Source: Bacteroidales bacterium
Lineage (GTDB): Bacteria > Bacteroidota > Bacteroidia > Bacteroidales > P3
Direction: 5' to 3'
Length of the DNA: 64,000 nt
Assembly (NCBI GenBank): GCA_045640985.1
Contig: JAZUFZ010000017.1
Span: 18,125-82,124 of the forward strand
The notes beneath the pieces are model-generated. The model was not told the DNA's origin. It made no database searches and saw only the letters and a program-made list of their open reading frames with translations. Positions 4,045-9,352 of the stretch are shown piece after piece. Numbering within the stretch: the first letter of the stretch is position 1; every line of letters starts with the position of its first letter. Made by a program: the position numbers and the translations under genes.

Positions 4045-4894
4045 AGTAAACGAAACCATAGAACTGCTGGCATTTCTCCAGCAGACAATGCCCGAAAGCA
4101 GCCGCACGAAGATTAAAGAGGTGCTGGCCCACAACGTATATGTGGATGGGCGTAAGACCACACAGTACAACTTCCCGCTCCAACCCGGCATGGAAGTAGA
4201 GATACAGAAACAGGGAGGCAAAGACCGTCTGAAGCCCAGAGACCTGGACATCGTATATGAGGACAATTATCTGTTTGTGGTGAACAAACACGAAGGGCTC
4301 CTTTCCAGCAGCAAGAACGCAGCCGACAAGACCGTGATAACCGTATTGAACCGCTATCTGGAGGCCACCCACCAGAAATGTACCGCCCATGTGGTACACC
4401 GGCTGGACCGCGACACCAGCGGGCTGCTTCTTGTAGCAAAAAACAAACGCACCGCTATGGAGCTGGAAGAACACTGGAAGGAGACGGTATATGACCGGGT
4501 ATATGTGGCTGTGGCCTGGGGAAACATAGAAAATGACAACGGAACGATCCGAAGCTGGCTTACCGACGGAGAATACTGCGTGCTTTCCTCCCCCACCGAC
4601 AACGGAGGAAAAGAGGCCATCACCCACTATACAGTAAAGCAACGGAGCCGCAGATACAGCCTCGTGGAACTGAAACTCGACACCGGAAGAAGAAACCAGA
4701 TAAGGGTACATCTCCGCGAGATGCAGCATCCCGTGGTACACGACCCTATGTACGGCTACAAAGAGGACCTCTCCCCCATCAGCCGGCTGGCGCTCCATGC
4801 CATGAGACTCTGCTTCAAACATCCCGTAACCGGCAAGAAAATGCAGTTCGAGACCCCGGTTCCACAAAGTTTTTTGAAATTGATGCAAATATAA
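4034..4894 (+). CDS. RluA-family RNA pseudouridine synthase
   Basis: Catalytic motif HRLDRDTSGLLLVAK and later RNQIRVH. 11-nt overlap with the upstream gene. Confidence 0.85.
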   Translation: MKYKVNETIELLAFLQQTMPESSRTKIKEVLAHNVYVDGRKTTQYNFPLQPGMEVEIQKQGGKDRLKPRDLDIVYEDNYLFVVNKHEGLLSSSKNAADKTVITVLNRYLEATHQKCTAHVVHRLDRDTSGLLLVAKNKRTAMELEEHWKETVYDRVYVAVAWGNIENDNGTIRSWLTDGEYCVLSSPTDNGGKEAITHYTVKQRSRRYSLVELKLDTGRRNQIRVHLREMQHPVVHDPMYGYKEDLSPISRLALHAMRLCFKHPVTGKKMQFETPVPQSFLKLMQI

Positions 4895-4929
4895 ATAATA
4901 AAACCGCAATATTCGCGTTATAGTAAGAT

Positions 4930-5553
4930 ATGGAATACAACACACAAAGAAAAATACTGCAATTCCCTGAGTATGGGAGAAACATCACCCAGCTGGTGGC
5001 TTATGCACAAACCGTTGAAAGCAGAGAAGAACGCACCAAAGTGGCAGAAGCCATAGTGAATGCCATGGCGGCAGTATGCCCGAAGGTAAGAGAGACAGCC
5101 CACTGGAAACTGCGCCTGTGGGGACATCTGATGATTATGTCGGACTGGAAACTGGACGTAGATGTGCCCGTAGGAGTGACGCGGATGGAGACGGTACACT
5201 ATACACCCGAGAAACTGACCTATAAGAATGATGATGTAACATACCGTCACTATGGACGCTTTCTGCCTGCACTTCTCGAAGCCATACAGAACAATCCCGA
5301 TGAAGAAGAGAAACAGGAGCTGATTGACATGACCGCCAACCTGATGAAGCGGCTTTATCTGACATGGAACAACGAAGGAGCAAGCGACGAGGTAATTCTG
5401 GAACAACTGGACAAACTGAGCCATGGAACCCTTACGCCCAGCGAGGGATTTCAGTTTCTTGGCAGAAACACCATTCTGGAGGAGCCCTGGAACGGAACCA
5501 CATCCAACACCAGCTCCACATCCGGCAACAAAAAGAAAAAGAAAAAGAAATAG
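4930..5553 (+). CDS. DUF4290 domain protein with Lys-rich tail
   Basis: N-terminus MEYNTQRKILQFPEYGRNITQLVAYA is typical of DUF4290, which normally precedes murA in Bacteroidota. It ends in KKKKKKK, encoded by (AAAAAG)3-like DNA. Confidence 0.7.
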   Translation: MEYNTQRKILQFPEYGRNITQLVAYAQTVESREERTKVAEAIVNAMAAVCPKVRETAHWKLRLWGHLMIMSDWKLDVDVPVGVTRMETVHYTPEKLTYKNDDVTYRHYGRFLPALLEAIQNNPDEEEKQELIDMTANLMKRLYLTWNNEGASDEVILEQLDKLSHGTLTPSEGFQFLGRNTILEEPWNGTTSNTSSTSGNKKKKKKK

Positions 5554-5608
5554 CCCGTCCTCCACGCCCGAAAACTGGTGGTAGAATAAGGAAAATAAAC
5601 TGAAACAA
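5554..5608 (+). repeat. 55-bp direct repeat, copy 1 (identical to 7971..8025)
   Basis: CCCGTCCTCCACGCCCGAAAACTGGTGGTAGAATAAGGAAAATAAACTGAAACAA read at both places; 55/55 identical by eye. Confidence 0.95.
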
Positions 5609-5624
5609 ATTAATATATAAAGTC

Positions 5625-6956
5625 ATGAGACATTATATTTTTTTCATCATGCTGCTTTGCACATTGATACCGACTAATGGGCGGAGTCAGAGCATCGAAC
5701 AGATACTACCATCAGCAGATCCAATATCAACATTGATCTGCAACTGTGACCAGCAACAGATAACCATTATGTATGAATTGGATGCCAATAGAATCGGTTG
5801 GTTGTATTATATTAATCCAGGGAATACTGCACTGCAGAAAGTACAGCTACCGAACGGAGTGGAACTGAAGGATATGGAATGCATAGGTGACACGATGTAT
5901 TTCGGCGGTGCCAATACCGCCACAAAGCAAGGATTGGTGGGATTCTTCAATGTGCAGGATCTGTTTTTCAACAGCGGACAGATTCACTTCTGTGAAATTC
6001 TTCCTCTGTGGGGCATACAGGGCTGCCACCTTCCAATGATAAAGAAGATAGACTGCTATGAATACGGAACAGGAATACATATCGCTTTCATCGGAAAAAT
6101 GCAGTTGACGGAAGACACCATCGGGACAATCGGCGAGGCTATCTATGACAATATTGCAAACACATGGAATGTATCGTATTTCTACAACAAAGAGCAACGA
6201 ATAAATTATACTGATGTCACCACCACTCAGAACTACGTTGTGGCTGTTGGTACAGACCCTGAACACCAATATATCATGCAAGGGTGGAAACAGACATCTG
6301 GATTTCTGTATGACCCACTATTTCCAGGTCAAATATCCGTAGCAAATGACAATGTAAACGAGTCAAAACTATTCGTGACCCATATCCAAAACAATGAATT
6401 TGCAGTTACCTATGAATATAGTGAGAACAATGGGATAGGAATAAAGATCAATACCCACAAAGTGAATACAACCAACGGCTTCATGTTCACAGCTGGAATG
6501 AAAGTGGCACCATGGACAGGTCATACGAATGTAATATATGATGTAGCATATCAGGGGCAGGCGAATAATCCTTGCATAATGGTGGTACACCGGGTATATT
6601 CCTCAATCTATAACTCGTATTTCGTAAGTTGGTTTGATTATTTTAATATATGGCCAAACTATCACCGAGCTAAACATTTGAATGACAAGGTTACCTCCAT
6701 AGATTTTTTGCGTGATTGGGGATATCAATTATCGGGGAGTATATACTCAAATCCATGTTGGACACTTTATCGTTATGATAATCTGTCGGTACAAAACACC
6801 TGTTTCCCACATGAATCCCCAACCAATGCGCAGAACAGTGTGAACATTACGAATATACCATTAAGTATTATAATTGAAATCCCTCATATTTCTACTTATA
6901 CCATAACTCCGACAGTGAACTCCAATAGCAGTTACATAAATTGTCAAACCAATTAA
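5625..6956 (+). CDS. hypothetical secreted protein (AT-rich cassette gene 1)
   Basis: Signal peptide MRHYIFFIMLLCTLIPTNGRSQS. Rich in N/Y/T and more AT-rich than the neighbours. I recognise no motif. Confidence 0.75.
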   Translation: MRHYIFFIMLLCTLIPTNGRSQSIEQILPSADPISTLICNCDQQQITIMYELDANRIGWLYYINPGNTALQKVQLPNGVELKDMECIGDTMYFGGANTATKQGLVGFFNVQDLFFNSGQIHFCEILPLWGIQGCHLPMIKKIDCYEYGTGIHIAFIGKMQLTEDTIGTIGEAIYDNIANTWNVSYFYNKEQRINYTDVTTTQNYVVAVGTDPEHQYIMQGWKQTSGFLYDPLFPGQISVANDNVNESKLFVTHIQNNEFAVTYEYSENNGIGIKINTHKVNTTNGFMFTAGMKVAPWTGHTNVIYDVAYQGQANNPCIMVVHRVYSSIYNSYFVSWFDYFNIWPNYHRAKHLNDKVTSIDFLRDWGYQLSGSIYSNPCWTLYRYDNLSVQNTCFPHESPTNAQNSVNITNIPLSIIIEIPHISTYTITPTVNSNSSYINCQTN

Positions 6957-6968
6957 ACAATAAATATT

Positions 6969-8006
6969 ATGTACAAGATCATCATCGTCATGACAATGTT
7001 GCTAACAGGTATCGGGAATGCATATTCTCAGAATAATGAAGTGTTGGACACCCTCTGGGAGAAGCCTGACCGATATTTCGCGAACTATTACCCACCGACA
7101 GACTGGATGGAAAACCCCAGTGTTGGATATTCACGTTCATTAAGGTTTGATTATGGAGAACTTCACGTAAGACGTGCTGATAGCAGTTTCACCTCTACTC
7201 ATCGTCTCTTGCACCAACTACATACCGACCATCCGTTGAAAATAGTGGGAATCGCATACTATGCCAGAAAAGACATTCCATACTATAAAGATTCCGTCAT
7301 CCTGTATGATATGGATTCGATGGGGAACATGGTACAATTATGGGCAAAAGGATGTGAATCGAAGGAGGAAGACAACCAACTGCTTTTGGATATTCCATAC
7401 GAGTCAGATGAAGAGGACCAATGCGGACATTCACCACGGCTGCCGCACAGGCTTATACTGATATCTGAATCATATCTGGATGAACCCATAATTGTGGAAG
7501 ACAGTTTCTATGTCGGATTTACCGACTGGTATCATGACGGAGGGTGGGGGAATTATTCTTGTTTGATTGTTCAGTGGTGGCGACCTTTAATGGATGTACC
7601 ATGGAACCGATGTGGATATCCGGTAATTCCAAAGATGTATTGGGAATCATCTACAGACACATGGCACCGGACAGATGTAGATAATTTTTCATATATGATA
7701 TGGCCTATCATTGATGTGGAATATGGGCAGGATACGATAGACACCGTTTCAGTTGGCAGGGTGGAAACGGTAGAGGAAATAAAGGTAAGTCCGAACCCCG
7801 CACGGGAACGAGTATCGGTGGAGGCTTCGCGGGTGATAGACCATCTTTGGGTAAAGAACACCCAGGGGGTTGAGATATACAACAACACCCATTGTACGAA
7901 CCGCGTGGAGCTGAACGTGAACTGGTGGTCCAAGGGAGTATATATCATCTATATGCAACTGGACGGAGACCCCGTCCTCCACGCCCGAAAACTGGTGGTA
8001 GAATAA
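6969..8006 (+). CDS. hypothetical T9SS cargo protein (AT-rich cassette gene 2)
   Basis: Signal peptide MYKIIIVMTMLLTGIGNAYSQ. C-terminus KVSPNPARERVSVEAS...KGVYIIYMQLDGDPVLHARKLVVE has the type-A T9SS sorting-domain pattern. Confidence 0.8.
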   Translation: MYKIIIVMTMLLTGIGNAYSQNNEVLDTLWEKPDRYFANYYPPTDWMENPSVGYSRSLRFDYGELHVRRADSSFTSTHRLLHQLHTDHPLKIVGIAYYARKDIPYYKDSVILYDMDSMGNMVQLWAKGCESKEEDNQLLLDIPYESDEEDQCGHSPRLPHRLILISESYLDEPIIVEDSFYVGFTDWYHDGGWGNYSCLIVQWWRPLMDVPWNRCGYPVIPKMYWESSTDTWHRTDVDNFSYMIWPIIDVEYGQDTIDTVSVGRVETVEEIKVSPNPARERVSVEASRVIDHLWVKNTQGVEIYNNTHCTNRVELNVNWWSKGVYIIYMQLDGDPVLHARKLVVE

Positions 8007-8025
8007 GGAAAATAAACTGAAACAA
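7971..8025 (+). repeat. 55-bp direct repeat, copy 2 (covers the last 11 codons, the stop and the 3' flank of the 6969..8006 gene)
   Basis: Identical to 5554..5608. Confidence 0.95.
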
Positions 8026-8032
8026 TATAGAT

Positions 8033-9352
8033 ATGAGTTCTTTTGAAATAATCGGAGGTCACAGACTGCAAGGCGAAATTCACCCTCAGGGGGCGAAAAA
8101 CGAAGCTTTACAGGTACTGTGTGCGGTACTCTTGACTGACGAAAAAGTTACCATAGAAAATATCCCGGATATCAGGGATGTCAATAAACTGATTGACCTG
8201 TTGAAGATGCTGGGAGTAAAAGTGACGGAACAACAGAATCACGAAGAGACCGGGAGAACTTTCGAATTCCAGGCAGACGAAATAAACCTCGGAGCCTACG
8301 AAAACAAAGAGTTCTGCACCCAAGCAGCAGCCCTGAGAGGCAGCATCATGCTGATGGGGCCCCTGCTGGCAAGGACTCATCACGCGTTAGTTCCCCAACC
8401 CGGTGGCGACAAGATCGGCAGGAGACGTCTGGACACCCACTATCTGGGAATGCAGATGCTGGGAGCCAAGGTAAGATACAGCGTAAACGGATATGAGGTA
8501 ACCGCTCCCGAAGAGCTGAAGGGCTGCTACATGCTGCTGGATGAAGCTTCGGTGACAGGAACCGCCAATATCGTAATGGCAAGCGTAATGGCAGAAGGGA
8601 CTACCACGATCATGAATGCCGCCTGCGAGCCGTATGTATATCAGCTGTGCAAGATGCTCAACCGTATGGGAGCCAAGATTACCGGGGTAGGCTCAAACCT
8701 GATTACCATAGAAGGAGTGAAGGAACTTCACGGATGCAACCACAGGCTACTGCCTGACATGATTGAGGTGGGAAGTTTCATCGGACTGGCAGCCATGACC
8801 CAGAGCGATATCACGATAAAGAACGTGAATGTGGAGCATTTAGGCATGATTCCGCAGGTGTTCCGCCGTCTGGGTATCGAAATATGGCAGAAAGATGATG
8901 ACCTGTATATTCCAAAACAGGAACACTATGAAATAGAGCGGTTCATGGACGGAAGCGTGATGACGATTGCTGATGCACCATGGCCAGGATTCACCCCCGA
9001 CCTTATCAGTATTGCCCTCGTGGTGGCGACCCAAGCTAAAGGCAGCGTGCTGATTCATCAGAAGATGTTCGAGAGCCGTCTGTTCTTTGTAGATAAACTT
9101 ATCGACATGGGGGCTCAGATTATTTTGTGCGATCCCCACCGTGCTACCGTAATAGGACTGAACCGGGAATACAAGCTGAGGGGAGTAAGAATGTCCTCGC
9201 CCGATATCAGAGCCGGTGTAGCACTTTTGATTGCCGCGTTGAGCGCTGAAGGGAAAAGTAGAATTGACAATATAGAACAAATCGACCGAGGCTACCAGCA
9301 TATCGATGAACGTCTTCGGAAGCTGGGCGCTGAAATAACACGTATTGAATAA
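8033..9352 (+). CDS. murA: UDP-N-acetylglucosamine 1-carboxyvinyltransferase
   Basis: FEIIGGHRLQGEIHPQGAKNEALQVLCAVLLT... full-length MurA pattern, 439 aa. Confidence 0.93.
   Translation: MSSFEIIGGHRLQGEIHPQGAKNEALQVLCAVLLTDEKVTIENIPDIRDVNKLIDLLKMLGVKVTEQQNHEETGRTFEFQADEINLGAYENKEFCTQAAALRGSIMLMGPLLARTHHALVPQPGGDKIGRRRLDTHYLGMQMLGAKVRYSVNGYEVTAPEELKGCYMLLDEASVTGTANIVMASVMAEGTTTIMNAACEPYVYQLCKMLNRMGAKITGVGSNLITIEGVKELHGCNHRLLPDMIEVGSFIGLAAMTQSDITIKNVNVEHLGMIPQVFRRLGIEIWQKDDDLYIPKQEHYEIERFMDGSVMTIADAPWPGFTPDLISIALVVATQAKGSVLIHQKMFESRLFFVDKLIDMGAQIILCDPHRATVIGLNREYKLRGVRMSSPDIRAGVALLIAALSAEGKSRIDNIEQIDRGYQHIDERLRKLGAEITRIE

Follow-up and report, generated by a model that had tools for sequence, protein, structure and literature searches.

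We examined a 64,000-nucleotide (nt) stretch of a Bacteroidales genome (GTDB lineage Bacteria; Bacteroidota; Bacteroidia; Bacteroidales; P3; GenBank assembly GCA_045640985.1, contig JAZUFZ010000017.1, positions 18,125 to 82,124 of the forward strand; hereafter the window), in which two genes for secreted proteins, gene1 and gene2, lie between a DUF4290 gene and murA and are bracketed by a 55-nt direct repeat. The upstream copy of this repeat is an orphan tail of the C-terminal sorting domain (CTD) of a type IX secretion system (T9SS) cargo protein, and is very probably the scar of a third, paralogous gene (geneA) that was lost from a tandem array of paralogues when direct repeats of the tail recombined through their homology. 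A first-pass annotation of the window, made from the sequence alone, had instead proposed that gene1 and gene2 were inserted as a cassette bounded by the repeats; strain variants of the locus suggest that both genes stayed put and that the upstream copy marks the lost paralogue.

The two copies of the repeat (copy 1 upstream, copy 2 downstream; Table 1) are 100% identical and 2417 nt apart, in agreement with the first-pass annotation, which also described the layout of the open reading frames (DUF4290, 443 amino acids (aa), 345 aa, murA) correctly. With up to three mismatches allowed, the 55-mer gave two matches in the window versus none in 100 shuffles, and across the whole genome (2.23 Mb in 50 contigs) it occurs exactly twice, both times at this locus. 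It comprises the last 11 codons of gene2 (PVLHARKLVVE) with their TAA stop, followed by a 3' flank of 19 nt, and brackets gene1 (443 aa, secreted, beta-propeller-like) together with gene2 (345 aa, T9SS cargo). The first base of copy 1 is the base directly after the TAG stop of DUF4290, and the repeat ends on the right at the point from which the leaders of gene1 and murA differ. In a scan of CTD tails in this genome, which has 35 CTD-bearing open reading frames, copy 1 was the sole orphan tail. Its earlier description as a CTD-tail remnant placed after the DUF4290 stop is supported.

DUF4290 and murA are normally adjacent, as had been assumed from the outset. In 11/11 genus relatives the poly-lysine tail and stop codon of DUF4290 lie 0–80 nt from the murA ATG, with nothing like the 55-mer between them. 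Of 60 evaluable loci across Bacteroidota, 45 have murA no more than 400 nt after DUF4290, the exceptions having other synteny and no secreted-protein genes. Species representatives of the genus show ~72% nt identity to the window in murA (79–83% for the MurA protein among genus relatives), and none of them carries DNA of the gene1–gene2 block. On this comparison, the block between DUF4290 and murA is specific to the lineage and was added at a gene junction that is tight elsewhere.

The gene1 and gene2 proteins are nearly orphan in a collection of 5.8 billion proteins, and the few matches led to contigs of same-species strains whose flanks are 98–99% identical to the window; all sequences used for the strain comparison are metagenome contigs. 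Some of these strains (L017, L041/L046 and, in part, L047, with geneA-side junctions in L054 and L055) carry three genes rather than two, in independent assemblies with identical flanking synteny and in the order DUF4290, tail0, spacer, geneA (366 aa, T9SS cargo), gene1, gene2, murA. The three-gene form is also supported by Logan contigs of sequencing runs X2 and X4, which break from the window at 5588 and 7692 and continue into the geneA spacer or body. When aligned to L017, the window, L015 and L018 each show a single gap of 1131 nt directly after the DUF4290 TAG. At the position of the gap, all three-gene strains have tail0, a degenerate 36-nt copy of a CTD tail lying directly after the DUF4290 stop, and tail0 and the geneA tail form direct repeats of ~34 nt that are 91% identical, 1131 nt apart and share a 17-nt perfect core.

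The paralogy of geneA and gene2 is sharply uneven along their length. Nucleotide identity between them is 40–69% over the first ~790 alignment columns and then jumps abruptly over the last 334 nt, which include the 19-nt flank, to 88–100% overall (92–97% in L041), and this mosaic suggests that gene conversion or recombination has taken place. Their passenger domains share 46% aa identity. As geneA was found only at this locus, with nothing beyond gene2 except distant relatives at 29–32% identity in the 5.8- and 1.84-billion protein collections, it is better seen as an old resident paralogue than as a recent import.

The junction left in some of the two-gene strains is a hybrid. Copy 1 in L015, L052 and L053 carries tail0 bases at positions 4, 14 and 18, followed by the 17-nt core common to all tails, and from position 36 onwards it has the sequence of the geneA tail (TAA stop and 19-nt flank), which is how the junction should look after tail0 and the geneA tail had crossed over with loss of geneA. 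The same arrangement accounts for the length of the repeat, as 36 nt were kept by tail0 and the remaining 19 nt are the 3' flank common to geneA and gene2. Copy 1 of the window has the geneA/gene2-type base at every position, and L018 is alike apart from one private single-nucleotide polymorphism (SNP). Among the geneA-bearing strains, the bases at tail0 positions 1 and 4 are of one state in some and of the other state in others, suggesting that the tails have undergone patchy conversion. The two-gene strains fall into no single group: SNPs in gene1 pair the window with L015 and L018 with the three-gene strains, while by type of copy 1 the window pairs with L018. This scatter implies either that the deletion recurred or that later recombination reshuffled the region. 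One further difference among the strains is a 16-nt tandem duplication across the gene1 stop (window position 6943) in L015-type strains and in run X1, by which the gene1–gene2 spacer grows from 12 to 28 nt and the spacing of the repeats from 2417 to 2433 nt.

Taken together, the locus has what would be expected of a deletion scar: an intact paralogue at the scar position in strains of the same species (geneA in L017, L041/L046 and L047), direct repeats at both endpoints, and a hybrid repeat in the deleted allele. In this species, the gap between DUF4290 and murA holds a lineage-specific tandem array of secreted-protein genes, with tail0-geneA-gene1-gene2 as the fuller form found in other strains. 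In the history that we propose for the lineage of the window, recombination between tail0 and the geneA tail would have taken out 1131 nt including geneA, leaving one tail directly after the DUF4290 stop which, with the 19-nt flank of geneA and gene2, makes up copy 1; copy 2 is simply the end of gene2 itself, left whole. In this lineage, conversion to the gene2 type would then have affected the left part of copy 1, and the pathway may have been either RecA-type homologous recombination or replication slippage. The first-pass annotation had already attributed change at this locus to recombination at conserved 3' ends, and strain variants do show recombination of that kind, but the repeats are not the edges of an inserted two-gene cassette. 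Its suggestion that recombination between copies 1 and 2 would delete the two-gene unit is mechanistically reasonable, and such a deletion is possible; it was not observed. At 55 nt, the repeat is longer than the minimum that RecA-dependent recombination requires.

Several points weigh against the deletion of geneA as we describe it. The junctions would fit the reverse reaction, integration of a geneA circle at a tail, equally well, and the proposed polarity rests on parsimony. Copy 1 of the window contains no tail0-specific base, and a simple crossover would need an additional conversion, mismatch repair or a less diverged ancestral tail0 to produce it. The 100% identity of the geneA and gene2 ends in L017 belongs to a SPAdes contig of 4x coverage and may reflect a collapsed repeat, the 96% of the MEGAHIT contig L041 being the safer value. 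Moreover, deletion would explain neither how tail0 arose nor how the array as a whole came to lie here.

If the polarity were reversed, the two-gene form with its tail remnant would be ancestral and geneA would have arrived by a Campbell-type single crossover of a circle carrying geneA and a CTD tail, an integration that would make tail0 and the geneA tail the hybrid sites. Integration and excision share the same junction logic, so that the hybrid pattern fits either direction, and the polymorphism of tail0 positions 1 and 4 among geneA-bearing strains is compatible with such an origin. We nevertheless consider it unlikely: a donor copy of geneA is found nowhere else in the 5.8-billion or 1.84-billion protein collections, the 46% identity of the geneA and gene2 passengers fits an old local duplicate, the two-gene alleles occur at scattered points of the gene1 genealogy, and the ancestral remnant would itself stay unexplained. 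The repeat could also be imagined as an att-like site, with the gene1–gene2 unit (2417 nt) excising and integrating by site-specific recombination at the CTD 3' end. The perfect direct repeats do bracket exactly this unit, and modules of the same kind are multi-copy and dispersed in the genus, but neither of the only two sizeable open reading frames between the repeats has a recombinase or transposase domain (Pfam), and no recombinase gene lies in or beside the unit. Neither significant inverted repeats nor hairpin sites were detected in or beside it, the only inverted repeats being weak internal ones (71–93% complementary), and an upstream repeat of the module's own 3' end occurs in just 3 of 20 modules (16 loci, other genomes). 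The hybrid and SNP-bearing variants of copy 1 fit homology-driven events better, and site-specific exchange of this unit is accordingly a very doubtful account.

Read depth bears on the same question ambiguously. Over window positions 4600–9000, the gene1–gene2 segment stands at a depth of 19 versus 37–48 in the flanks in run X1, and at ~4 versus 14–15 in run X4, which could reflect sub-populations without the two-gene unit or noise in depths that come from Logan k=31 contigs only. The runs are inconsistent: in X3 the segment has the same depth as its flanks and a shared 37-mer stands at single-copy depth, which makes the depth figures unreliable. The empty site with a single 55-mer, which the first-pass annotation had proposed to look for in related genomes, was absent from the contigs searched. 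Exact-match searches with the DUF4290 and MurA proteins returned neither empty-site nor one-gene alleles, nor did look-ups of cluster members P0006, P0004, P0010 and P0011, and two scans of JGI metagenome contigs (one for the DUF4290–tail junction, one for the tail itself) gave 0 matches. A broader version of the same idea, in which the CTD 3' block and its short flank serve as a dedicated recombination handle by which passenger genes or modules are excised (possibly as circles), moved and re-joined, is in our view quite improbable. If it were true, it would amount to a cassette-exchange system for varying T9SS surface proteins, with the orphan tails at 5554–5608 and in L070 (a locus of another species of the genus, described below) as its footprints.

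That the repeat is an artefact of assembly or binning (a loop in the de Bruijn graph, the collapse of a repeat, or strains joined into a chimera) is extremely unlikely. Such an origin was worth considering, with 55 being the default largest k of metaSPAdes, the genome a metagenome-assembled genome of 50 contigs, and related metagenome contigs showing faults of their own (palindromic ends in L042 and L044, chimera-like structure in L039 and L072). A k-mer artefact was rejected on two grounds. The overlaps between contig ends here measure 141, 135, 97 and 77 nt and in no case 55, a pattern that fits MEGAHIT with k=141, so that every junction is spanned by 141-mers, longer than the repeat. Furthermore, the same junctions (DUF4290-tail-gene1 and gene2-tail-murA) recur in independent assemblies from other samples, namely L015/L051, L052, L018 and the Logan contigs of runs X1 and X3.

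Both chimera-like contigs contain pieces of the array. L039 (ENA ERZ27247196 k141_958353) has a frame-broken 3' part of gene2 followed by murA, 95% identical to the window; upstream it is joined to unrelated sequence, and downstream it carries rimM, an M23 peptidase gene and dxr at 65–71% identity to this genome; it is either a chimera or comes from a divergent lineage whose synteny differs. In L072 (ENA ERZ27247210 k141_697996), unrelated genes surround 713 nt from the interior of geneA, which are 99% identical and include neither signal peptide nor CTD; this is probably an assembly chimera, with transfer of a passenger domain as the alternative.

Table 1. Features of the DUF4290–murA locus in window coordinates.
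Feature	Position	Strand	Remarks
DUF4290 gene, 207 aa	4930..5553	+	Pfam PF14123, 197 bits; left border of the variable array
Repeat copy 1, orphan CTD tail (11 codons, stop, 19-nt flank)	5554..5608	+	100% identical to 7971–8025
gene1, 443 aa, signal peptide, no CTD	5625..6956	+	No Pfam match; first gene of the two-gene module
gene2, 345 aa, T9SS cargo (signal peptide, ~270-aa passenger, type A CTD)	6969..8006	+	Por_Secre_tail, 23.7 bits (below cut-off)
Constant 334-nt 3' block (linker, CTD, stop, 19-nt flank)	7692..8025	+	Also ends geneA in three-gene strains
Repeat copy 2, functional gene2 3' end and 19-nt flank	7971..8025	+	Identical to copy 1
murA, 439 aa	8033..9352	+	Pfam EPSP_synthase, 237 bits; right border of the array

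The neighbouring genes are rluD-like, radical SAM, DUF4290, murA and cpsB. The tail remnant (window 5551–5589) is in frame with DUF4290, and read-through of the TAG would append PVLHARKLVVE to that protein; tail0 of the other strains is likewise in frame, for which the chance expectation is 1/3, and no sign of function was seen. A promoter and terminator scan found nothing above shuffles within or around the repeat. The contrast in GC content noted in the first-pass annotation exists but was overstated: the unique interior of the block (5609–7970) has 41.7% GC, against 48.7% in DUF4290 and 49.8% in murA. With a genome mean of 46.8% (standard deviation 4.3%), the interior falls at the 11th percentile of equal-sized genome windows. 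Foreign origin of the block on grounds of low GC was rejected, given this percentile and the 41.7% GC of a paralogous array elsewhere in the genome.

That second array, between a thyA-like gene and nusA/infB, spans C29:79722-83313 and continues into C7:1-832 of the same genome (G000; L048, L049). It consists of a CTD gene (379 aa), a gene1-like gene (421 aa) and two further CTD genes (374 and 368 aa). All three CTD genes have the same end peptide, and their CTDs and 3' flanks are 94–97% identical at the nt level; the last two are 87% identical over their full length, and the repeat breaks the assembly at the join of C29 and C7. Further groups of CTD genes, with the last 56–64 nt 95–98% identical, were seen at or near the ends of contigs C33, C9, C12, C6 and C37/C42, and the genome probably contains additional arrays that have collapsed or been broken. 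Two groups with near-identical tails lie at contig ends, the places at which repeats interrupt an assembly. Homogenisation of sorting-domain ends within an array is thus a habit of this genome.

Similar behaviour is seen outside the species: L070 (G094:C1) has an independent orphan CTD tail of ~17 codons and a stop ~125 nt upstream of a gene1-like gene (5744-7105, minus strand), and this tail is more like the C-terminal end of a paralogue from a different contig of that genome (L069) than like the cargo gene of its own module. Flanking repeats were tried as a general hallmark of these modules and rejected, as only 3 of the 20 have any; the other 17 of the 20 modules at these 16 loci lack an upstream repeat of their own 3' end, indicating that flanking repeats are not obligatory for the spread of the module.

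The arrangement of gene1 and gene2 recurs throughout the genus. Paralogues of gene1 with 21–31% identity are present in 60 of 120 genus genomes (21–33% for gene1- and gene2-like paralogues overall), and at 16/16 loci from 14 genus genomes (L056–L071) a gene1-family gene of ~450 aa is followed within 2–66 nt by a gene2-family CTD gene of 350–550 aa. Some of these loci have an extra CTD gene, and modules occur in tandem in L057 (two) and L068 (three). Neither gene1 nor any member of its family matches Pfam, and an AlphaFold2 (AF2) model of gene1 is all-beta (predicted local distance difference test (pLDDT) 68.7; predicted template modelling (TM) score 0.73), with generic beta-propeller matches only (TM ~0.5). 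The ESM Atlas, consulted for gene function, provided only hypothetical or DUF5122/PQQ-like leads.

The probable assignment of gene2 to the T9SS cargo proteins draws on several features. Alone, its CTD stays below threshold for both Por_Secre_tail (PF18962; 23.7 bits, cut-off 27) and TIGR04183 (18.8 bits, cut-off 23), while in the aligned gene2 family 10 of 10 members match TIGR04183 (best E 2.5e-11) and the motifs PNPA, G.Y and KLVV align across the family. The AF2 model shows a beta-sandwich at residues 271–345 with pLDDT 80–90, and inspection of the translation reveals a signal peptide with a hydrophobic core followed by AYS|Q. The genome encodes GldM/PorM (TIGR03517; 241 bits, cut-off 180; contig C32), the sole component of the T9SS machinery that was searched for. 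The beta-rich passenger of ~270 aa is a very fast-evolving domain; its AF2 model has pLDDT <50, and a collection of 1.84 billion representative proteins yielded just five relatives. The pair of a propeller and a T9SS cargo protein appears to be an undescribed, conserved two-gene module that is multi-copy across the genus, and we infer that it encodes a surface binding pair under rapid diversification.

These results provide a sequence-level example of how the repertoire of T9SS surface proteins can change between strains, through whole-gene loss via homogenised sorting-domain ends. Orphan CTD tails could flag past contractions of arrays in other genomes, and the two-gene module is a candidate for strain-specific surface recognition. 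Shrinkage of an array by recombination between near-identical gene ends is ordinary array dynamics, and none of our results overturns current understanding.

Comparison with known systems places the locus among familiar phenomena. Like the target-site duplications of transposons, it has direct repeats around an apparent insert, but here these are 55 nt of coding sequence without terminal inverted repeats or a transposase; the first-pass annotation had already judged 55 bp far too long for a transposase target duplication. Campbell-type integrative elements, with their attL and attR sites, resemble it in that a block of genes lies between identical direct repeats tens of bp long, and its excision by recombination would be precise. 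In contrast to them, the locus has no integrase, tRNA or typical att target, other copies of the module lack a conserved repeat, and the variants of the repeat are mosaics of two older tails.

We found no paper in the literature describing CTD-mediated contraction of an array. The nearest known phenomena are deletion, duplication and gene conversion among tandem paralogues that have a conserved block in common, and the concerted evolution of arrays of surface-protein genes. The closest T9SS-related case found was that of kgp, rgpA and hagA in Porphyromonas gingivalis, where domain rearrangement and allelic exchange have been described (PMC5266723). In both systems, surface proteins exported by the T9SS combine a constant C-terminal part with variable passengers, and strains differ by recombination between repeated coding blocks without a dedicated recombinase. 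Unlike in P. gingivalis, a whole gene is exchanged or deleted here, in an uncultured Bacteroidales bacterium of the ruminant gut (the habitat being judged from the records of its relatives); the recombining block is the CTD-coding 3' end with 19 nt of flank, a non-coding orphan tail is left abutting a housekeeping gene, and the passengers are without known function. The event itself is of a known kind, in which an array of surface-protein genes contracts and the ends of its paralogues are converted, in this case the ends that encode T9SS sorting domains.

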